Of a DNA stretch of 64,000 bases, positions 140-32,585 are shown piece after piece. Below the pieces are notes generated by a model. The model ran no database searches and was not told where the DNA came from. It was given only the letters and a program-made list of their open reading frames with translations. Numbering within the stretch: position 1 is the stretch's first letter; each line of letters opens with the position of its first letter. The stretch lies in the NCBI GenBank assembly GCA_963675745.2, contig CAXXWX010000005.1, forward strand, positions 32,001 through 96,000, given 5' to 3'. The translations under genes and the position numbers were made by a program. The stretch comes from Phycisphaerae bacterium (lineage in GTDB: Bacteria; Planctomycetota; Phycisphaerae; UBA1845; Fen-1342).

Positions 140-835
140 TCAGCGCATGATCCAACGGCGGGTCAGGAACACCGGCTTTACCGACCCACGGGCACGCTCT
201 GACCCGGGAAGCGCATAACACAGTTCCAGCGTCTTACGCAACGTGAAGTGCTGCGGGTTGACATCAATTTCACGCCCGCGACCGTCTTTGCCGACCACCG
301 TGGCTGTCTGCGGACGATCCGGGTCATACTCAGGATTGGCGATGAACCGCGTCTCGCCGCTCAGGCCGGCCACGAAAACCGTGAAGCTGTTGACGTTCAG
401 CTCACCGGCCCGCCAGATCGCAACTGACTGGCGCGCATGGTCGTCGCCGGTTTTCAGATCGCCGATTACCTTCGTCGGGTGCATCAGGTAGCGGTGTGTC
501 AGTCTGTGGCGTTCCTTGATCGCCTGAAACACCAGCGGACTGATACCCATATCCGTGTCGATCACCCGCAGATCTTCAGTCACAAGCTGAAACAACGGGA
601 AAAACGGCTGCGTGCGATGGCCGGGGTTCGTCACGGTGTAGACCATATACCAATACACAGTGGGGCTGGTGTGCCCGGGAAGCTGCACGGCGATCCGCTG
701 CGGATGCGTGAACTCGAACTCGAATTCCCAGGCAACTGGTGTCGGCGACGGTTCAGGACCACTGCCTACGCGCGCGTCATCCGCCGTCGGTGCCGCCGTC
801 GTGGAAAAGAGCACAGCCAGAACCAATGAGAACAT
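140..835 (-). CDS. Exported conserved hypothetical protein
   Basis: 231 aa ORF with a signal-peptide-like N-terminus and a YWYMVYTVTN motif; starts 9 bp after the HEAT gene stop. Confidence 0.8.
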   Translation of the reverse strand: MFSLVLAVLFSTTAAPTADDARVGSGPEPSPTPVAWEFEFEFTHPQRIAVQLPGHTSPTVYWYMVYTVTNPGHRTQPFFPLFQLVTEDLRVIDTDMGISPLVFQAIKERHRLTHRYLMHPTKVIGDLKTGDDHARQSVAIWRAGELNVNSFTVFVAGLSGETRFIANPEYDPDRPQTATVVGKDGRGREIDVNPQHFTLRKTLELCYALPGSERARGSVKPVFLTRRWIMR

Positions 836-844
836 CTGTCGCTC

Positions 845-3301
845 CTAGCCGCCGTACGTGTTGCGGATGATCTGACTGGCCGGGTTCCCAGGCAGATTGA
901 GCGCCCCGAGCGCCTGCGAGGCCGCCGTCCGGATCACCATATTCTCATCGCTTTCGGCGATCTTGATCAGCGCGTCCACGTGCGCCGGATCGAGCAACGC
1001 GCCGTTTCGCTTCGCCGCCTCGGCCAAGGCGCCGAACATGGCGACACGCATCGGTTCGGCCGTTTCCGTATCGAGGGCGATCAAGGCAACGGCATTCTGA
1101 GCACCGCCTGAGTGAATGTGCGCCAGTACGTTCGCGACCGCGATGCGCAGCTCGTCATCTTCGGTGGACAGCGCATTCAACAGCGCGACTTCCAACTCCG
1201 CCGGCGAGAACAGGGGGTTGTTGCCAGCCGCGAACAGCCGCAGAACTTCGACCGCCTCCTTGGCCAGCGCCACACCGCGATCGGCCGTGATCGACTCCGC
1301 GCCGACCGCGCCGGACACTTGCGCCACGACCTCGTTGATCTCCTCGGCTTCGTCGCCAGGATGAGTCTCACCCAGCCGATGATCAGCGCGTACCAGATCG
1401 CGCACGCGCCCCTGTTGGGCCTCCTTGGTGATGATCACCACCGGCGTCGCAGCGAAGCGGAATTCACCACGCAGAGACTCGAGTGCCCCGGCCAGGTCGG
1501 GATTCGACACATCTGACGCCAGGAAAATGACGTCGATGCCCGGCGTCTGTTCACGGGCCTGCTGCAAACCGGACAGCAGCTCGTTTGTGACGATCACCGC
1601 GTAACCCTCGTCGCGCAACGCCCCCGCAATCACATTCGCTGAACCGCTGTCCGGGTCCACGATCAGGGCGTCGCGCATGCCCGCGTGCAGGTTCAGCGTT
1701 TCTCCCAACACCGGCATCAGGTTCTGGTAGTCCTTGAATATCTCCGCCGGCTGAGCGAAACCCAACGCCAGCGCCGCCTGAATGCGTACCATTCGGTTGG
1801 GGAACGACAGTGCCTGAGCCAACGGTGGTGCGGCGTGTTCGCCGCTGAACAGGCTCGCCGGTCCGGCCGTCTTGCGCAGGGCCGCAATTGCGCCGAGTGC
1901 CACTGCGGGGTCGCCGTCCTTCAGCGCACGCGCCAAGGCGCGCTGGCAATACTCAGCGCCGGCGGACTGGGCGAAGTAGACTCCCGTGGGGAACACATCA
2001 GGGCGTGTGTTGTCGGTCCGGTCACCCAGTTGTGCTTCGCGCCGCAAATTAGCCGCCAGCCAGAGCGACAGGGCCTCTGTATGGTCCGGATTGAGCAGCA
2101 GTGCCTTTTCGCACAGCCGCATGGCCATCACTTCGTTGAAGATATCCGTCGGCACTTCGACATTCTGGAGAATGTCGTCACGCCAATACCACACGTTGGC
2201 CCACTCCAACAGCGGGTCGGCGGCCACCGTGCGATGGTCGTCGTAGTACATTTCCGCCAGACCCAGCATCGCATCGGCGGCGTCCTTGACCGCGTCACCC
2301 TGGGTACCGCTCACCGCGAGCTCGTCAAGCGCTGCGCGCGCCGCGGTGCGCACCTGGGGGGCGGTCTCATCCTCGGCAAGCAGTTGCAGCAAATACGGTG
2401 CCGCCTGAATGTAGCCGATTTGCCCCAGAGCCTTGATGATGTACAGCTTGACCGTGTCATCATCCAGCTCGAGCGCCGCCACCAGCGGATTCAACGCCGG
2501 GCGATCAATCTGCGGCAGGCAGCGCAAGATCGGCAAAAGCAACTCCTGCCGATCCGGGTCACGCAGGGCTTCAATCAAAAACGGTGGGGCGTACTCACCA
2601 GAGTCCTTCAGCAGGGCAACGCCGTTCTCGAAGGCGCGCGGCGGCCCGCCGAGGCGCTCGATATTGCGTTTGATGCGCACCGGGTCGGATTTGACAATGC
2701 GCTCCCCCTCGCGCAGTGCCGCCAGCACGTTGCGCACCGGTTCGCCCATGACGGGATGACCGGCGAGCTGCACCAGGATGGCGTGTCGCCGCGGCAGGCG
2801 ATCGGCGAATTCCAGCAATGCGACCGGATCAACCTCGCTTTTGAACAGCTCGCGGAAGTTCGCGGCCGCAACATCGAACCGTCCGATTGACGCGAAGTAC
2901 CAGCCGTCGTCGGCCTGGTTCATCTGTTCGCGCCCGGCGCGCAGCAACTCGACGACCCGGCCCGCGTTTTCACCCAGCTCTTCCTGGTCGTAATCCTGTT
3001 CGAGCAGCAGCACCGCCCCACCGCTTGCCGCGCGCTGAGTGGTGTGTTCTTCGAGCAGCGCCATGCGCAGTGGCGAAGGATCCGTCTCCAGGAGTTCGCC
3101 AAATGCGGCTTCAACAGGTTCCTGGTCCTGGGCCAGCACTGCCTTGAGCGCGGCTTGCCAGCGCTCCCACGCCTGAGCCGCACGCCCGGTCACGAATTCG
3201 TCGGTCTGCGTCTGGGCCACTGCCGGAGTGGCTGCCATCGCGATTGCCGATATGACCAGGACTGAGCTCAGGGGACGAACGACGCGCGTCAAAACACCCA
3301 T
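845..3301 (-). CDS. Exported HEAT-repeat protein with receiver-like domain
   Basis: GGAGG RBS before ATG 3301; signal peptide ending AVAQ; HEAT-like helices (IIKALGQIG, VRIQAALALG, IRTAASQALG); REC-like segment ALIVDPD...IDVIFLASD...PVVIITK. Confidence 0.8.
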   Translation of the reverse strand: MGVLTRVVRPLSSVLVISAIAMAATPAVAQTQTDEFVTGRAAQAWERWQAALKAVLAQDQEPVEAAFGELLETDPSPLRMALLEEHTTQRAASGGAVLLLEQDYDQEELGENAGRVVELLRAGREQMNQADDGWYFASIGRFDVAAANFRELFKSEVDPVALLEFADRLPRRHAILVQLAGHPVMGEPVRNVLAALREGERIVKSDPVRIKRNIERLGGPPRAFENGVALLKDSGEYAPPFLIEALRDPDRQELLLPILRCLPQIDRPALNPLVAALELDDDTVKLYIIKALGQIGYIQAAPYLLQLLAEDETAPQVRTAARAALDELAVSGTQGDAVKDAADAMLGLAEMYYDDHRTVAADPLLEWANVWYWRDDILQNVEVPTDIFNEVMAMRLCEKALLLNPDHTEALSLWLAANLRREAQLGDRTDNTRPDVFPTGVYFAQSAGAEYCQRALARALKDGDPAVALGAIAALRKTAGPASLFSGEHAAPPLAQALSFPNRMVRIQAALALGFAQPAEIFKDYQNLMPVLGETLNLHAGMRDALIVDPDSGSANVIAGALRDEGYAVIVTNELLSGLQQAREQTPGIDVIFLASDVSNPDLAGALESLRGEFRFAATPVVIITKEAQQGRVRDLVRADHRLGETHPGDEAEEINEVVAQVSGAVGAESITADRGVALAKEAVEVLRLFAAGNNPLFSPAELEVALLNALSTEDDELRIAVANVLAHIHSGGAQNAVALIALDTETAEPMRVAMFGALAEAAKRNGALLDPAHVDALIKIAESDENMVIRTAASQALGALNLPGNPASQIIRNTYGG

Positions 3302-3522
3302 TAGCCACCTCCACGCGGCGCTGTGGTTGGGAGGGCAACGCGCCGCCGAGTGCATGCTGATAACCGTTGCGGATTATAAATCGGGGGCCGACCCTGTCAA
3401 ACCGACCCGGCGCCGTGGTACGCCCTGGAGTCTCACGGTATGGGGACCCGTTTGGCCAGTGGCATGCCGTCCCGGGCACACGGCTGGCGCTGACCAGCGG
3501 TGTGCCCGGCGGCATGCGCTTG

Positions 3523-4578
3523 TCAGATCGGCTGGTAGTTTATCCAATCCCGCACGAGGAACTCGAAACGTCCCACGAGCAGCGCGATACGGCCCATGAC
3601 CGTGAAACCGAAGCCGGCGCCGAACGTGACCATCAATACCCAGACGCCTATGCGCGAGATCCTCCCGACCACCCCTTTGTGCTCCAGTGAGAAGAAGAAA
3701 TACACCAGTGTCGCGAAGAGCCCGAGCAGCAACACGACGTTCTTCAGCGAGAAGTAAAACGCCAATCCGAAATCATAGGGTTGCCCGGCATCAATGCCAT
3801 CCCGCGTGACGACCAAGGGTGCGGTCGCGGCGCTAATCTGCGCTACAAAGTCCGCCTGGAGGTACGCCACCATGCGGAGGCCGGCGGTGCCACCGATCAC
3901 GAACGCCAGCGGCCAGCGCGAGATCCACTGCCCCGACGGGGCCAGCCGCCAAAGCAGCATGACACCCAGCACCATTGGAATCCAATACCACCAGTTCATC
4001 AGCAGATACCACGGGGCATTGAGTCCCTGACCCACCGCCGCGCCGTAGTCCACTATTCCCCACTGGCTCAACCAGTTTTCCGCCGCCAGCTTCTCGACCC
4101 ACTCATCGAGTGGATGTCCGGGGGCGAGGTTGAATTTCACGAATCGCGGGAACAAGCGCCCGATGCCGATCGGCACCGCCATGTTCCAGAAGGTGACGAC
4201 CATCCAGTACGCCGCCGACGCCCCGACAAAGATACTCTCGGCCAGGCGGTAGAAGGGACTGTCCTTGTACAGGAAGGAGAGGATGCACAGCGTGAAGAAC
4301 GCCGCCAGCCAGACGCCGATCGTGCGGACCGGGCTGAACTGGACGTTCTTCTCCAGCTCGGCAAGCTGCGTCTGCCTGTCGGCGTCAGTGAGCGACTCAT
4401 CGTGCATGATCTGTGTACGCCGCTGCTCCAGGTCGCCGGTCGTAACGGTGGTGCGCTTGATGGTCTTGCCCTCACCGATGACCTCGTACTGGCCAGTGCC
4501 CATGCCGCCCAACAGGGCCCTGACCAGGATCAGGATCACACCGGCTGCGATAATGAAAACGCCGATCTTGCGTCCCAT
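3523..4578 (-). CDS. Polytopic membrane protein of unknown function (operon gene E)
   Basis: About 8 hydrophobic segments; motifs SFLYKDSPFYRLAESIFVG and MVTFGAGFGFTVMGR; ATG 1 bp from the upstream stop. Confidence 0.85.
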   Translation of the reverse strand: MGRKIGVFIIAAGVILILVRALLGGMGTGQYEVIGEGKTIKRTTVTTGDLEQRRTQIMHDESLTDADRQTQLAELEKNVQFSPVRTIGVWLAAFFTLCILSFLYKDSPFYRLAESIFVGASAAYWMVVTFWNMAVPIGIGRLFPRFVKFNLAPGHPLDEWVEKLAAENWLSQWGIVDYGAAVGQGLNAPWYLLMNWWYWIPMVLGVMLLWRLAPSGQWISRWPLAFVIGGTAGLRMVAYLQADFVAQISAATAPLVVTRDGIDAGQPYDFGLAFYFSLKNVVLLLGLFATLVYFFFSLEHKGVVGRISRIGVWVLMVTFGAGFGFTVMGRIALLVGRFEFLVRDWINYQPI

Positions 4579-4579
4579 G

Positions 4580-5488
4580 TTATTGAACCTCGCGTGCGCT
4601 GCGTTGCATGGCCAGGATGATGTTGCCGACAATGATCAGCACGAGAATCAGGCAGTGGGCGATGAGCTGTGGGCCCATGCGATTTATGCCCTGCGTGAAC
4701 TCGATGCGCGGCTTGAGCTTGTCCGCCGCCGTCGTGCTGTACGTCGGCCCGTACGTGTACTCGGGGTACTTCTTGCCGAGAAGAAACTCGTATTCGGCGG
4801 CACTTTTGATCGCCCCCAAAAGGCCTTTCATCTGTCCCGGGTAGTACGGATATAGCAGCGGAGCCTGCACTCCCGTGCAACCGCCGATCACGTCGATGTT
4901 GTAGGGCGTGCCGGCGTATTGGACCCACTCCTTGGTGCCGGGGTAGCCGGCGCTGACGCTGATGATCAGGTCCATGTCCTGGACGCTGGTGATCTTCTTC
5001 GTCATGGGGATATCGTTGAGGCTCTTGCCGCGCCGGTCGGTGTTGAAGAGGTTCTTCAGGTTCGTGACGATGACCTTGATGACCCCTTCGTTTCCGGTGC
5101 GGAACGTGAGATTGACGTAATCTTCGCCCTCAACCAGGTCGGGGAAATCCTTGTGAAGCACCTGGCTGACGGTGTCCTGCACCATGTTCACCCCCAGCGG
5201 CCACAGCGCCATGAAGTACATCTTGTGGCCCTTCTGGGCACAGTGCCAGGTGAACGATGTGGCCATCGGCTGCAACTCCGGGGCGCTGCCCGGGTCATAG
5301 TCGAAAGCCAGCAGAATCTTCGATCCCGATGGAAGCTCTTCCACCGCATCAAAGGCATCCTGCACCAGCAGCGATGGAATCTGCCATGACTGCATCGGGA
5401 ACAGCACCGGGATGATGACGGCGATTCCCATCAGCAGGAAAACCCAGCGGCGATCCAGGCTAATCAGGTGTTGAACCAACGAGGCCAC
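4580..5488 (-). CDS. Membrane-anchored protein of unknown function (operon gene D)
   Basis: N-terminal TM (DRRWVFLLM), soluble alpha/beta middle (FDYDPGSAPELQPMA; GLLGAIKSAAEYE), C-terminal TM. Confidence 0.85.
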   Translation of the reverse strand: MASLVQHLISLDRRWVFLLMGIAVIIPVLFPMQSWQIPSLLVQDAFDAVEELPSGSKILLAFDYDPGSAPELQPMATSFTWHCAQKGHKMYFMALWPLGVNMVQDTVSQVLHKDFPDLVEGEDYVNLTFRTGNEGVIKVIVTNLKNLFNTDRRGKSLNDIPMTKKITSVQDMDLIISVSAGYPGTKEWVQYAGTPYNIDVIGGCTGVQAPLLYPYYPGQMKGLLGAIKSAAEYEFLLGKKYPEYTYGPTYSTTAADKLKPRIEFTQGINRMGPQLIAHCLILVLIIVGNIILAMQRSAREVQ

Positions 5489-5491
5489 GGC

Positions 5492-6532
5492 TTACCCCTT
5501 GTCTGAGCCAAGATATGACCGGTCGATTCCCAGTAGCACCTTCAGCGATGTCGCCACGATGCCCAGCGCAATCCCGATCATGATCGCGCGGTTGCCGGCC
5601 GTGTTGAATGTGAGCATGATCCAGTCCGCCAGATTCTCGATGCGGAAAAACGACAGGAAACCTGTCTTCGGCAGGGGATACGTGATGGCCGCGCCGGCAG
5701 CCGTCCGCCCCAGCAGAATGATGAACGCCGTGCCCAGCAGCATCACTGACTCGGCGTTGCGCGCCCGGAATGCACGGAACGCCGCCGACGCCACGTAGAA
5801 CGCCAGCATGGCGAACATCGTTGCCTGCAACGGGCGATAGACGCTGGAATAGATAAACCAGAACGCCGACCCGTCGTAGATATGATCGCCGGTCATCCAG
5901 CCATAAGGCTGCAATTCAGCCGACAGTGAGCCGATTTTGACGCTGATCGGCTCGTACACGGGCACGTCCGCCGGGTCCTGCCCCGGCCGGGCGATGACCT
6001 CGGGAATGTAATACTCCGCGAGGAAGGCGTTTTCGGGCTGTTCATCATCGCTCGCCCACGCCAACGTCATGTCGGCGTTGCCTTTCGCGTCCGTCTCGAT
6101 TTCGGCACGCCGCACACCGGCGATTTCGATCGGCAGCGTCGCGTCTGCTTCCGCCCCGCGCAGGCTGATGGTCAACTCGCGCGCTTCCGATGTTCCATCA
6201 AACGTGATGAGCGCGATTTGCCTGTCCTGTTGCGGGATGGCGTGCAATCCGGTCTGTGGCGGCACACCTACTTTGCCGATACCGACGATCAACGTCACCG
6301 CAAAGGCCGTCACGGTGACGGCGCTATAGCCCCAGCCCTCGGTCTTCTTGTAGATCTTCTCACCGTGCGAGCGGAGCAGGTTTCCGCCGCCGAGGATGAA
6401 GGCGAAGGCTGCGATGATGTCGAAGTAGACCGCGGTTTCTTCCGACAGCTTTCGGATGTTCGGGATGAACGCCGAGAGTATCAGAATGAAGCCGACAGCC
6501 GCCGTGATTAGCAGAGGTACGTTTCTTTTCAC
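5492..6532 (-). CDS. Polytopic membrane protein of unknown function (operon gene C)
   Basis: GTG 6532 after AGGAG; 3 TMs, a large loop, then PLQATMFAMLAFYVASAAFRAFR and RAIMIGIALG...LLGIDRSYLG. Confidence 0.85.
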   Translation of the reverse strand: MKRNVPLLITAAVGFILILSAFIPNIRKLSEETAVYFDIIAAFAFILGGGNLLRSHGEKIYKKTEGWGYSAVTVTAFAVTLIVGIGKVGVPPQTGLHAIPQQDRQIALITFDGTSEARELTISLRGAEADATLPIEIAGVRRAEIETDAKGNADMTLAWASDDEQPENAFLAEYYIPEVIARPGQDPADVPVYEPISVKIGSLSAELQPYGWMTGDHIYDGSAFWFIYSSVYRPLQATMFAMLAFYVASAAFRAFRARNAESVMLLGTAFIILLGRTAAGAAITYPLPKTGFLSFFRIENLADWIMLTFNTAGNRAIMIGIALGIVATSLKVLLGIDRSYLGSDKG

Positions 6533-6551
6533 GTCAGTGCGCTCCTGGTCG

Positions 6552-8090
6552 TCACTCGGCCACTTCGAGCAGGTTGTTGCGGACAAAATCGAGCACAGCG
6601 CCCACCCAGCTATACTTGGCCTCCCCCAGCATCACCATCGTCGAGAGCAAGACGCCGACCACAATGAACAGCGCGACGATGATCTTGCCAATGTCCTGGC
6701 CCTTCAGGCTGCCGAGCTGGTGGGGTTCGCCGGACAGGTAAGCCGACGCCGCGAAGAACTCCTCGCCGATCAGCGTATAGTCACACGCCGCGACAAAGAA
6801 CGGGAGCTGTGCGGGCATGGCCGTGCCGGCGATCTGAATGGCACCGGTTTCGTTGGCGGTCTCGGCCAGAATCAGCGACTCGGCGTAAAAGGCCCCCATG
6901 TAGAAGCAGGTGGCCGGCCGCTTGCGGACCATGGCCCCCGTCACCGCCGCCACGTAGCCAAACTGCTCGTCCGTAGTGTAGTAGATCTGCTTGTCGCTAT
7001 ATGCGTCGGGACGGCCCGCGTTGTCATAGCTGGTCTTGACGATCTCACGCGCCGTCGTCATCACAAGTGAGCGGCTCGTGGGCACCTCCAGCATCGCGTC
7101 GTGCTCCGCCGCCGTCTTGGCGACCCGGCCGAGGATGATCAGGCCGGCGATCGTCTGGATGTCGGTGATGTCCTGGATGCCCGGCACGAACATGATCGGC
7201 CGGCCCATCTCAGTGGCGCGCCCGACGGCCTCATCGACGGCTTCCAGACCCGCGATCTTGCGGATGTAGATGTCCTTGCCGCTTCTGACCTGCTCGATGT
7301 AGAAAACCACCGCCCCGCAGATCACCAGCATGAAAACAAAGAACGGGATTTTGCGCGAGTGGAACCAGCCGCCGCGCGTCTGCGTCACGTTGGTTGTCAA
7401 CGTGGCCAACGGCCCGGCATCCGCCGGCGTCTCGCCATCCGCGGCCGGCAGCACCGTGACCCGATACCGGTAGCGCTTGCCGATGCGGAGGTTTTTGTCA
7501 TCCTCCAATCGGCGGTCGGCGGCGGGCGCCACGGCCAGCGTCTCCCACTCGCCGGCCTCTTCGTCAGCCTCGCCCATGACCTGCTGCCGTTCGACCTTGT
7601 ACGACCCGGCCCGCTGATCCTGTTTCCACACCACAATCAGCTTGAGTCCGTCATCATCGGGATAGTCGAACGCGGCGGCCCGCGGTACGACCATCAGCAA
7701 CCGGCTTTGAATGGTATCAAGCGCTGACGCCACGTCCCCTTCAGCCAACCCGAACTCTGTGTCATCGAGCCGGTGGTCGGGATAATCAAAATTGTGCAGC
7801 GCGTCATAGGTGTCCTGCCAGACGTCATCCGGCAGGTCGGCATCAGCCTCCTGCAACAGGCCGCGCGCCGAGCGCAGGGCAAGAAACATGCGATCGCGAT
7901 CCGCCAGGCTTTCGTATACATCCCAGACGTCGCGAATCTTGCCCTCATCCTCGAAGACCCGGGCGCTTGCCCCGGCAGCCATGCGCACGTCCGTTGCGTC
8001 CGGAGCCTCCTCCTGGGCCGCTGCCAGCAGCGGTATGGTCAGCATCACCGCGCAGCCGGCCAGCAGCCGGCACTTTCGTCTCCAGGTCAT
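6552..8090 (-). CDS. FN3-like + DUF6754-like membrane protein (operon gene B)
   Basis: ATG 8090 after GAGGAAG; signal peptide; FN3-like segment (LIVVW...YKVER...YRYRVTV); TM; IRKIAGLEAVDEAVGRATEMGRP and QLPFFVAACDYTLIGEEFFAASAYLS recognised as DUF6754-like; C-terminal TM. Confidence 0.85.
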   Translation of the reverse strand: MTWRRKCRLLAGCAVMLTIPLLAAAQEEAPDATDVRMAAGASARVFEDEGKIRDVWDVYESLADRDRMFLALRSARGLLQEADADLPDDVWQDTYDALHNFDYPDHRLDDTEFGLAEGDVASALDTIQSRLLMVVPRAAAFDYPDDDGLKLIVVWKQDQRAGSYKVERQQVMGEADEEAGEWETLAVAPAADRRLEDDKNLRIGKRYRYRVTVLPAADGETPADAGPLATLTTNVTQTRGGWFHSRKIPFFVFMLVICGAVVFYIEQVRSGKDIYIRKIAGLEAVDEAVGRATEMGRPIMFVPGIQDITDIQTIAGLIILGRVAKTAAEHDAMLEVPTSRSLVMTTAREIVKTSYDNAGRPDAYSDKQIYYTTDEQFGYVAAVTGAMVRKRPATCFYMGAFYAESLILAETANETGAIQIAGTAMPAQLPFFVAACDYTLIGEEFFAASAYLSGEPHQLGSLKGQDIGKIIVALFIVVGVLLSTMVMLGEAKYSWVGAVLDFVRNNLLEVAE

Positions 8091-8150
8091 TTCGCTTCCT
8101 CGAAGAGGCTGCGCCTTGGGCCCGCGCCTACCATGTTCGCGCACCGTTCG

Positions 8151-8603
8151 TCAGCTTTCGCGCTCCTCAGCAGTGGACACGCCACCCGACGTTTCCCGCT
8201 GCCCGCGCACCTTGGGTTCGTCCGCAAGCTCCTCGATCCGGCGGCAAAGCGTCTCGATGCTGCCGCGTTTCTCGAGAAACCCAGTCAGTGTCTTATACTG
8301 TTCGGGGTCGAATACAAGCCGGGCCAGCGGGGCGATGAACACCAGAAACTGGCTGGCCACGTAATTGAGTGGGCGACTGCACTCCAGGAACATCAGCGCC
8401 GGCGGCGCCATGCCGCGCCGGACGACAGCCTCCGCCAGCCGGTCCACCAGCAGTTGCTCAGATTCGGTCGGTTTGACGGGCCCGGGGGGATCGACCGCGA
8501 ACGCGTGCTTGAGCCGGCCCAGCAGGCTCCCGTCGCGCTGAGCCTCGACACTGCCGCGAGATGCCGCGCTGCCCGGTCTTGTGGTCGTTGGCGAATCGTC
8601 CAT
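8151..8603 (-). CDS. Small conserved hypothetical protein (operon gene A)
   Basis: 150 aa; amphipathic core RRGMAPPALMFLECSRPLNYVASQFLVFIAP; 60 bp upstream of gene B on the same strand. Confidence 0.75.
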   Translation of the reverse strand: MDDSPTTTRPGSAASRGSVEAQRDGSLLGRLKHAFAVDPPGPVKPTESEQLLVDRLAEAVVRRGMAPPALMFLECSRPLNYVASQFLVFIAPLARLVFDPEQYKTLTGFLEKRGSIETLCRRIEELADEPKVRGQRETSGGVSTAEERES

Positions 8604-8746
8604 TACCGCCCGCTGTCACTTCAAACCCCCGGGTCAATTTCTCAACCAGAACGCGGAATGTTACCCGCAGCGCCGAGGCCTGTCACGTGTCGAGGCGCGA
8701 GATTCTTCGTCCGGCGTGGCCGGCGATCCTTACACGTCTCTAACTT

Positions 8747-9235
8747 TCAGTCCGCCGCCTCTTCGGCGCGGGCAACCACGCCCTCCGGGAGACACTCGCG
8801 TATGCGGCGCAGGACGGCATCGCGCTGCCTGCCAAACAGAATGTGGATGCCGCGTCGCCCTTCGCGCCACGAACGCCGGCTCAACGGTGATAGCCAGGCT
8901 CCGCGCGAGCCAAAGGCGCACAGCCGCACCTCAGACCAGCTCAACCGCCGACTGCCAAAAAGCGTGTTGACCACTATCTGTTCGCGGCTTATCTCGTAGC
9001 CCGTCGCAAAAAAGAACCTGTGCAGTACCAGGCACAGCAACACCGCCGCACCGATTCCCGCCGCTCGTGCCTCCGCGAGCTGGCTCACCAGCACCGCCAG
9101 CGCGCCGATCACAATCAGAGCGGCCACGGTCGCCAGCGGACGCTCACGCGCCGGATGTGACTGCCAGCTAAGAATCGCCACATCGTCGGTCGAACCGGCG
9201 TCCTGCGATTGATCTGTCGGCGCTGCCCCGTTCAT
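8747..9235 (-). CDS. Two-TM hypothetical protein with bacterial PH-like tail
   Basis: Two hydrophobic helices followed by YEISREQIVV...RRLSWSEV. Confidence 0.65.
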   Translation of the reverse strand: MNGAAPTDQSQDAGSTDDVAILSWQSHPARERPLATVAALIVIGALAVLVSQLAEARAAGIGAAVLLCLVLHRFFFATGYEISREQIVVNTLFGSRRLSWSEVRLCAFGSRGAWLSPLSRRSWREGRRGIHILFGRQRDAVLRRIRECLPEGVVARAEEAAD

Positions 9236-9323
9236 GCCACACATCATAACGCAATGGGCCGTGTGTGGCCGCAGGCGCTGCGGCAAAGACCGTGTGGCAA
9301 CCAGATGCCGGGTCTTGCTTGAG

Positions 9324-9359: not shown

Positions 9360-10259
9360 ATGGAAAGCAACTCACAAGCCGCACGCGCGCACGCAAACCC
9401 GGAGTGGGTGCACAGTCTGAGACTGCTCCTGGCGATTGGCGTGGTCTGGGCTTTGCTACATTTCCTGGTAACCGGGTTGGTGTTGCCACGCGGGCTTGAC
9501 CGGCCGCCGGTCATCGCCGCCAGTGGCGGATTGGCCGCCCCCGCACTGGTCATCGCGCTCCTGCTCGGAACGACTATCGGTGTCTTCATCGCCGGACGCG
9601 CCAACGTACGTGGCGCACTGCTGGTCTCCATTCCGGCCCTGGTTATTTGGGCATCGTTCGGCGGCACGATGGACAAGTGGCTGACGATGTGCAACGTCGA
9701 GGCCGGCCCACCAGTTGGGGCGCCCTATTGGCCGTTGATGGCTGATTATCTGGTCTTGTTTATCGCGGTGGCGGGCGTGATAGCGATCGGCGCCGTGTCC
9801 GAACGCCGAGGCTCGATATCGCGCGTGCTGCGCCTGAAAGACGCGCGACGCGACCTGGCCGGCGGGCTCGCGACGCTGGCGCTCGTTGTTATCGTGGCCA
9901 CGGTGGTCATGGGCGTGCTGATGGGACCGGCGGTGAGCCAGACGCACCGCGGGCAAGTGTACTTCGCCGTGCTGGTGGCGTTTTTTGCAGGCGCGTTCAC
10001 AGCGCGCTCGGTTCTCGGACAACAACACCAGATCTGGTACTGGTTGGCGCCATTTGTCGTCGGTCTGGCCGGATTGATCGTGGCGGCAGCCTGGCCGGCC
10101 CTGATGATCCCGGACACATACCGCAAATTGAACCTGCTGCCAGCCTGGTGGCTGGCTCGACCTCTGCCGGTCGAGATGGTCGGCGTGGGCCTGCTTGCTA
10201 TTATCTGGTCAGTGGGCGGCCACACACCGCGCGACCAGCACCGATCCGCGCGTGATTGA
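9360..10259 (+). CDS. Polytopic membrane protein
   Basis: 299 aa with about 8 hydrophobic segments. Confidence 0.75.
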   Translation: MESNSQAARAHANPEWVHSLRLLLAIGVVWALLHFLVTGLVLPRGLDRPPVIAASGGLAAPALVIALLLGTTIGVFIAGRANVRGALLVSIPALVIWASFGGTMDKWLTMCNVEAGPPVGAPYWPLMADYLVLFIAVAGVIAIGAVSERRGSISRVLRLKDARRDLAGGLATLALVVIVATVVMGVLMGPAVSQTHRGQVYFAVLVAFFAGAFTARSVLGQQHQIWYWLAPFVVGLAGLIVAAAWPALMIPDTYRKLNLLPAWWLARPLPVEMVGVGLLAIIWSVGGHTPRDQHRSARD

Positions 10260-31733: not shown

Positions 31734-32585
31734 TTATCTCCCCGCCGCCTGTGCCAGCAGTCGTCGGATGCGCTCTTCAGTCTTGGGGTGCGTGCTGAAC
31801 AGCGTCGCGCCGATGTCCCGGGCCGACAACGGTTCCATGATAAACATCTGGTTGAACGCCGGGTTCGCGCCCATCGGAATACGCTCGTTGCCCGCCTGAA
31901 GACGCCGCAGCGCGTTGGCTAGCTTGCGCGGATCGCCGCACAGTTCGCCGCCGTAGCTGTCCGCGGCGTACTCCCGCTGCCGCGAGATGGCCATTTGAAT
32001 CAGCATGGCCGCAATTGGCGCTAGAACAATCATCGCGATCGTGCCAATCGCCCCCAGCGGGTTCTCACGGCTGCGACCGCCGCCGCCGAACCACATCAGC
32101 ATCCAGCCGGCGTAGCTGATCATGCCGGCCATTACGGCCGCGATCGTCGAGATCAACACATCACGGTGCTTCACGTGTGCCAGCTCGTGCGCCAGCACGC
32201 CCTCAATCTCCTCCGGCGGAAACCCGCGCAGCATGCCCTCGGTCAGCGCGACGGCCGCCTTTGATGGGCCGCGGCCCGTCGCAAACGCGTTGGGCGCCGG
32301 CTGTGGACAGATGTACACGCGCGGCATCGGCATGCCGGCCCGCTGCGCCAGACGCTCGACCATATCGATCAGCCAAGGCAGTTCGTTACGCGTCACTTCC
32401 CGGCCACGCATCGCGGCGATCGCTATTTTGTCGGAGAAGAAAAACGCAATGATGTTGCCCAGCCCGCCGAAAATCAGGCCGATCAGCATCCCGTGCGGCC
32501 CCAGGAAGAAATGCCCGAGCAGCATGCACAGGCCAATGAGGCCACCCAACAGCAGTGCCGTTTTGGCGTTATTCACAAATCGCAT
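31734..32585 (-). CDS. htpX: HtpX-like M48 zinc metalloprotease
   Basis: PNAFATG, AHELAH, SRQREYAAD, FSTHP. Confidence 0.92.
   Translation of the reverse strand: MRFVNNAKTALLLGGLIGLCMLLGHFFLGPHGMLIGLIFGGLGNIIAFFFSDKIAIAAMRGREVTRNELPWLIDMVERLAQRAGMPMPRVYICPQPAPNAFATGRGPSKAAVALTEGMLRGFPPEEIEGVLAHELAHVKHRDVLISTIAAVMAGMISYAGWMLMWFGGGGRSRENPLGAIGTIAMIVLAPIAAMLIQMAISRQREYAADSYGGELCGDPRKLANALRRLQAGNERIPMGANPAFNQMFIMEPLSARDIGATLFSTHPKTEERIRRLLAQAAGR

Follow-up and report, generated by a model that had tools for sequence, protein, structure and literature searches.

A DUF6754 gene cassette and its MutL-family partner: a candidate ATP-driven transport machine in Planctomycetota and other bacterial phyla

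The window analysed here is a 64,000-nucleotide stretch of DNA from a Phycisphaerae bacterium of the phylum Planctomycetota (GenBank assembly GCA_963675745.2, contig CAXXWX010000005.1, forward-strand positions 32,001 to 96,000). Between positions 3523 and 8603 it carries five co-oriented genes, A to E, all on the minus strand and separated by gaps of 60, 19, 3 and 1 bp. Together with two partner genes found elsewhere in the same genome, X and Y, they likely encode an ATP-driven transport machine of a type for which no description was found, and the set recurs across several little-studied bacterial phyla. A sequence-only reading of the window, made without database searches, had already described these five genes as an operon for a heteromeric, ATPase-independent transporter or sensor complex; the gene coordinates and spacing that it gave are correct.

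Gene A (8151..8603, minus strand, as are all five) encodes a small amphipathic helical protein of 150 residues without a transmembrane segment (TM). TMs were called from 19-residue windows with a Kyte–Doolittle mean of at least 1.5; the maximum in A is 1.48, its helices have an amphipathic moment of up to 0.79, and it is likely to be a cytoplasmic adaptor. Gene B (6552..8090) starts with ATG and encodes 512 residues, comprising a signal peptide, an FN3 ectodomain, a TM, a DUF6754 core and a second TM. The signal peptide, assigned by eye to residues 1–25 (8016..8090), has a basic start, a hydrophobic segment at residues 7–25 and an Ala-x-Ala end. The extracytoplasmic FN3-like domain (7371..7733) is an optional part of the protein, absent in 16 of 136 B copies. 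The two TMs lie at residues 248–266 and 470–488, and residues 240–488 (6627..7373) match the Pfam profile DUF6754 (PF20539) over positions 3–251 of 257 (E = 7.6e-122), scoring 405.8 bits against a cut-off of 27. The identification of B as a DUF6754 protein, proposed in the sequence-only reading, is thereby confirmed. So, at the level of the family, is the FN3-like ectodomain: a profile of 80 B ectodomains matches domains of titin, fibronectin and FN3con, and Pfam fn3 is matched individually by 15 of the 80 members, the window's own B not among them. Near-invariant residues, read from an alignment of 195 B sequences, include the glycines that end strands 1, 4, 5 and 6 of the core and, where TM2 begins, a Gln-Asp-Lys cluster; they would suit a ligand or partner site.

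Gene C (5492..6532; 346 residues, GTG start) encodes a six-TM protein with a predicted cytoplasmic N-terminus (N-in), an outer TM3–TM4 loop enlarged by some 115 inserted residues and conserved polar residues in TM4 and TM6; a G-x-G-x-x-G pattern at the end of its TM3 is not kept in the family consensus and was set aside. Gene D (4580..5488; 302 residues, GTG start) has TMs at residues 16–34 and 275–293 on either side of a soluble Rossmann-like core that is predicted to be extracytoplasmic. Its family comprises 5,171 clusters at 50% identity, and one 630-residue protein, P0066, has two D-type domains in tandem. Gene E (3523..4578; 351 residues, ATG start) has an extra N-terminal TM followed by a six-TM core with a predicted outward N-terminus (N-out). 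Hydropathy analysis agrees with the protein types first described—one small amphipathic protein, two with a soluble domain between TMs, and two polytopic—and patterns for Walker A, CxxC and CxxCH are absent from all five proteins, as the earlier remark on missing Walker A, Fe-S and heme motifs had held. A, C, D, E and Y match no Pfam or NCBIfam family over its cut-off. Profiles of B, C, D, E and Y found nothing below E = 0.09 in a sequence search of the PDB, the ESM Atlas gave no usable named match for C and, for Y, clusters that were all either without a name or of the barrel-sandwich/KOW kind, and B has no match in plasmids or phages.

A scan of GTDB with the B core returned 589 relatives, and the loci of the best 79 were examined, a sample biased to close relatives; the closest among these 79 are from Phycisphaerae, at 83% identity. 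C was found in 77 of the 79 loci, D in 71, E in 69 and A in 41. Where at least 3.5 kb is available downstream of B, B-C-D-E occur in that order in 62 of 63 loci, the exception (L059) being a B alone. Named loci also come from Neomarinimicrobiota, Ignavibacteria, Acidobacteriota, Zixibacteria and Eisenbacteria, and those of Gimesia carry the full set of seven genes. The genes thus co-occur in other genomes. The sequence-only reading had also placed similar motif sets in both bacteria and archaea; the archaeal part is not confirmed, all named relatives being bacterial. DUF6754 was found in none of 14 control genomes, four of them archaeal, and no search aimed at archaea was run.

The cassette also behaves as a block. 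Loci of Zixibacteria and Ignavibacteria hold two to four tandem copies, and the window's genome has a second, divergent cassette on another contig (C27; L082:8159-11922) composed of B, C and a single open reading frame for D and E. A second A-like gene (about L082:13094-13336) lies on the opposite strand, just downstream of the C27 cassette and convergent on it. The D-E fusion is not peculiar to this genome: the 636-residue query is covered to 96% or more by 53 of 55 relatives, and three further fusions occur among the longer D matches. At one locus (L098:6940-8639) two short B genes stand in tandem ahead of one C-D-E set, which hints that the copy number of B per complex can vary. In a single case (L099:8736-10769) two B-C-D-E cassettes flank a gene for an oligopeptide-type ABC ATPase, which matches oligo_HPY once and ABC_tran twice.

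Beyond this conserved core, the outer domains differ widely. By mechanical start calls, the N-terminal extension of B is shorter than 30 residues in 16 of 136 copies and longer than 300 in 12, and B reaches about 1,300 residues. B can carry FN3 and PKD domains, C can carry FG-GAP and FHA, and D can contain CARDB and HEAT; all of these except FN3 come from a scan of 43 hand-picked proteins.

In most loci A and B are about 3 kb apart, and this space is occupied by X and Y, giving the usual order A-X-Y-B-C-D-E. Y directly precedes B in 36 of the 46 loci with room, and in two loci (L017 and L022) X and Y form one open reading frame. The arrangement A-B-C-D-E without adjacent X-Y occurs in 5 of 24 metagenome loci and in 9 of 114 loci (seven ABCDE and two UABCDE, U being a small gene upstream of A), the latter set including 35 loci hand-picked for divergent or long B genes or for their X-Y contexts. 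Extra genes are inserted at some loci (L105:724-1794, L106:12381-13421, L117:10552-14004 and L097:10713-12485): one for a PD40 beta-propeller protein or for a 1,150-residue protein without a Pfam match separates X from Y, and one for a Sel1-repeat protein separates Y from B.

X is a protein of about 600 residues that matches Pfam MutL (PF13941; E = 1.7e-130) and, weakly, Hydantoinase_A (E = 1.4e-5). In the window's genome its ATP-binding motifs are intact and are those of an ASKHA (actin/Hsp70-fold) ATPase, two for phosphate and one for adenosine, at residues 13, 286 and 429. ATPases of this class do without Walker A, so the motif scan behind the sequence-only reading could not have revealed such an enzyme. 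The X protein scanned against NCBIfam, that of locus L006, to which the X of the window's genome is 61% identical, falls below all three GlmL cut-offs (239.6 against 475, 216.2 against 600 and 166.1 against 204). Y matches Biotin_lipoyl in 30 of 35 members, RnfC_N in 21, KOW in 15 and NQRA_N in 8; it is a barrel-sandwich/KOW protein.

Relatives of X and Y are also found away from the cassette. Large, secreted, protease-like proteins with ends that resemble dockerin repeats by eye are encoded near the orphan X and Y genes of the window's genome (L083:82-5318 and L084:2568-5717). In several genomes (L100:7275-9749, L101, L102 and L103) a divergent X goes with a Y-like partner that is itself divergent or else fused, the fusion in L100 having 824 residues; no cassette was seen within the stretches fetched, and these proteins possibly form a separate subfamily.

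The link between X, Y and the membrane cassette was followed across 301 genomes, one even sample of the phylum in which kin are not independent, and hence no p-value is given. B is present in 80 of these genomes, the MutL family in 82 (counting matches over the cut-off and excluding nine weaker ones), and Y and A in 78 each. B coincides with X in 77 genomes, with Y in 76 and with A in 77 (the last overlap read by hand), and 215 genomes have none of B, X and Y. The three B genomes without an X match are all fragmented assemblies of 410 to 1,140 contigs, and genomes with a split operon, namely the window's genome, G031 and G298, have X and Y at other sites. Glutamate mutase E was found in 5 of the 301 genomes and is absent from the window's genome. 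Among the 77 genomes with both B and X it occurs in one, G298, where it adjoins a second, separate MutL gene. Five genomes have X without B, and in three of them a true GlmL adjoins glutamate mutase E. X therefore does not track glutamate mutase; it tracks the membrane cassette instead. Given this co-occurrence, the ASKHA motifs, the position of Y before B and the lack of a glutamate mutase partner, the description of the complex as ATPase-independent is not supported. The proposal of a heteromeric complex is supported as likely by the fixed gene order, the repetition of the cassette as a block, the D-E fusions and the compact D-E model described below.

Structure prediction was applied to relatives of the window's proteins. 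The D-E fusion of the second cassette gave a model with a predicted local distance difference test score (pLDDT) of 91.9 and a predicted template-modelling score of 0.89, in which D and E are modelled as one rigid, compact unit; the B core of locus L074, 61% identical to that of the window, was modelled with a pLDDT of 92.6. The B and D models follow the same order of TM, helix, six strand–helix units and TM, with helix 2 at residues 71–90 in both. Topology was predicted from the Lys/Arg bias over 76 sequences per subunit. In B the count is 1.1 before and 4.3 after TM1, placing its core inside, and in D it is 3.0 before and 1.0 after, placing its core outside; the bias also makes C N-in and the core of E N-out. 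On the models, D is likely a structural paralogue of the B core in inverted orientation. C and E, with six core TMs each and twelve in all, are predicted to sit in opposite orientations. Eight entries are common to the 50-row VIA fold lists of B and D, four of them over nearly the same template range (6lrf, 4ovy, 4i5i and 1kjn). The sole hint of an internal repeat is in E, between hairpins 1–2 and 3–4 (32%).

The closest folds of the B core are tied at Z 9–10.2 (root-mean-square deviation 3.3–4.1 over 135–145 aligned residues) and comprise sirtuins, PGK, glycosyltransferases, RCK domains, transhydrogenase domain III and ACDS epsilon. Those of D are tied at Z 7–8.4 and comprise flavohemoglobin, RCK domains and single lobes of class I sugar-binding proteins, one such lobe matching at Z 7–8.2 with a deviation of 3.0–3.6 over about 125–130 residues. 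The models thus suggest a Rossmann-like fold for both, with no family indicated. Foldseek returned no match at E of 0.001 or below for the D-E or B models, and the VIA fold lists are filled by Rossmann-like domains; neither the Foldseek result nor the PDB sequence search is a sign of new folds. A reading of B as a DHS-like dinucleotide domain found no support in profile comparisons, which gave less than 1% against ETF-alpha, PntB domain III, Sir2 and TrkA-N; the controls gave 87% for ETF-Sir2, 50% for PntB-Sir2 and 1.9% for ETF-PntB, the last being a failed control. Covariation between chains (mutual information with average product correction; 129 cassettes, 96 effective) peaked at z 5.9, against 5.4 and 5.6 in neighbour-swapped controls, an underpowered comparison that speaks neither for nor against assembly.

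On this evidence B, C, D and E very probably assemble into one complex, and X and Y probably energise it. A tentative account, to which we give somewhat less than an even chance, is of an inner-membrane B-C-D-E complex that is energised by X-Y, with A as a probable adaptor, and that imports a solute or small polymer. The outer domain of D and the variable outer domains would capture the cargo, and C and E would form the transport path; two-fold pseudo-symmetry of inverted subunits is typical of transporters. X would bind and release the cytoplasmic domain of B in an ATP cycle, by analogy with GlmL-type chaperones, which are thought to prise at B12 mutases. A single X-Y pair may serve several cassettes, as the window's genome has two cassettes and two A genes with one X and one Y. 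Such a system might represent a primary active transporter or translocase of a new class, a proposal that falls just short of an even chance. Its motor would be an actin/Hsp70-fold ATPase rather than one of the ABC, P-type or AAA kinds, its inverted pairs would be B/D, whose twin Rossmann domains point inward and outward, and C/E, with six TMs apiece, and it would swap extracellular capture domains among the one to four cassettes that share an ATPase module.

Several points weigh against import by such a complex. Transport and ATP hydrolysis are predicted functions, and the coupling of X to B is drawn wholly from genomics. In the window's genome X and Y are not adjacent to the cassette: X lies on contig C17 and Y on C1, in both cases with unrelated neighbours. 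Across the 79 loci there is no consistent neighbour gene that would reveal a substrate, and the very large, varied outer domains fit a role in reception or adhesion as well as they fit an importer. Paralogy of B with D and of C with E goes undetected in profile comparisons (probability at most 14%), so it rests on the models, which are themselves of second-cassette and L074 proteins rather than of the window's own; and the fold matches of D are tied, within the range that the tool calls a common arrangement.

Other explanations have been weighed as well. The hypervariable FN3, PKD, FG-GAP, CARDB and HEAT domains, the KOW matches of Y and the regulatory RCK domains among the closest folds of B could belong to a transmembrane receptor that senses a ligand or surface with its outer domains and signals through B to X-Y as a nucleotide-switch output module, the KOW-like end of Y perhaps contacting RNA polymerase or ribosomes. 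This is rather unlikely: the 79 loci show no recurrent gene for a kinase, a cyclase, a DNA-binding protein or a sigma factor, the twelve conserved core TMs and their invariant polar residues exceed the needs of a receptor, and 16 of 136 B copies are without the ectodomain. Another candidate is an ATP-driven motor for export, assembly or envelope remodelling, in which X would be a puller or scaffold of the Hsp70 or PilM kind and the cassette would move or anchor a protein, lipid or polymer outward. ASKHA proteins coupled to membrane machines, such as PilM, GspL and the Hsp70 import motors, have roles of this kind, the gene set is common in Planctomycetota, Zixibacteria and Ignavibacteria, and large adhesin-like outer domains occur; however, genes for a pilin, a secretin, a glycosyltransferase or an outer-membrane protein do not recur across those loci, and outward movement of this kind is considered unlikely. 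A membrane enzyme or energy converter, with X-Y resembling a hydantoinase or carboxylase driven by ATP, B and D binding a dinucleotide or cofactor on either face, and ions flowing through C and E, is equally improbable. It would make sense of the weak Hydantoinase_A match of X, the RnfC- and NqrA-like barrel-sandwich hybrid domains of Y, the tied B folds that include Sir2, transhydrogenase domain III and ACDS epsilon, and the near-invariant strand-end glycines of B. Yet A to E are without CxxC or CxxCH, it would be unusual for a domain on the outer face to bind a dinucleotide, and the B and D profiles stay below 1% against ETF-alpha, PntB domain III, Sir2 and TrkA-N, a comparison in which one positive control also failed.

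The remaining two alternatives concern what X and Y are to the cassette. If they were no more than frequent neighbours, A to E would form a self-contained, ATPase-independent secondary transporter or sensor; the loci of the five-gene form fit this, and inverted topology is typical of secondary carriers. That the split-operon genomes retain X and Y, and that the X match is missing solely from fragmented assemblies, makes such independence quite improbable. Least probable is an accessory system for a vitamin-B12 mutase, as the database label 'GlmL/MutL' would have it. The strong PF13941 match favours it, and MutL/GlmL is described as a chaperone that reactivates glutamate mutase (PMC4682846). 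Against it stand the failure of the L006 protein to reach any of the NCBIfam GlmL cut-offs and the near absence of glutamate mutase E from genomes with B and X, a count that covers glutamate mutase E among the B12 enzymes.

The putative X-Y-driven transporter shares single features with several known systems. Pfam DUF6754 contains B, covers only its core and gives no function. X shares its Pfam family and intact ASKHA motifs with GlmL/MutL, including the GlmL-related ornithine-degradation protein, but differs from them in its sub-threshold NCBIfam scores and in following a membrane cassette rather than glutamate mutase. ATP-binding cassette (ABC) and energy-coupling factor (ECF) importers have a shared energising module, and here too a single ATPase module seems to be common to several membrane cassettes; the outer domain of D resembles one lobe of a class I solute-binding protein (Z 7–8, tied). 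In contrast to both, the ATPase is of the ASKHA type, A to E have no Walker A motif or ABC/ECF family match, and there is just one binding-protein-like lobe, with two TMs as its anchor. Rnf and Nqr complexes contain an inverted six-TM pair (RnfA/E), and the barrel-sandwich hybrid domains of Y match RnfC_N and NQRA_N; they differ in that A to E lack CxxC, an ASKHA partner is present and no Rnf or Nqr family is matched over its cut-off, the nearest being a weak Rnf-Nqr match in 1 of 76 C sequences (E = 0.066). A cytoplasmic Rossmann-like domain on a membrane complex recalls the Trk/Ktr RCK channels and transhydrogenase domain III (B folds tied, Z 9–10), whereas the profiles give less than 1% and the domain of B lies between two TMs, with an inverted twin on the outer face. 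C and E have no match to a pore family of RCK-gated K+ transporters. No description of the gene set was found in the literature searched, whose coverage ended short of subscription journals and supplements. If true, an ASKHA-ATPase-driven transporter would add a type of energy coupling to membrane transport and would set right the interpretation of many 'GlmL/MutL' genes without a glutamate mutase partner. The seven-gene set of Gimesia makes a planctomycete model plausible.

The limits of the operon can be judged from its flanks. Between E and the HEAT-repeat gene downstream lies a sigma-70-type consensus that matches at 12 of 12 positions with a 16-nt spacer (3373..3400, minus strand); this perfect consensus suggests that the next gene is separately transcribed and that the unit ends at E. 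A weak promoter-like match (9/12; 8658..8686, minus strand) upstream of A may be due to chance; it is one of five such sites found, against 1.3 expected. Gene U (8747..9247, minus strand), which encodes a small membrane protein of about 166 residues with an uncertain start, is co-oriented with A and directly upstream of it. U has this position in 26 of the 58 loci with room and is an optional member of the gene set.

The HEAT-repeat gene and the gene after it were considered as members and rejected, being found in only 5 and 4 of the 79 loci and having their own promoter-like site. The former (845–3355, minus strand) encodes 836 residues that include HEAT repeats and a receiver-like domain (Response_reg, E = 6e-4), and the latter (140–835, minus strand) a 231-residue, exported-looking protein. 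The pair trails E solely in the closest relatives (L001–L005). On the other side, divergent from the U-A unit, a gene at 9360–10259 (plus strand) encodes a polytopic membrane protein of 299 residues and no family, which recurs at the same position only in L001 and L004.

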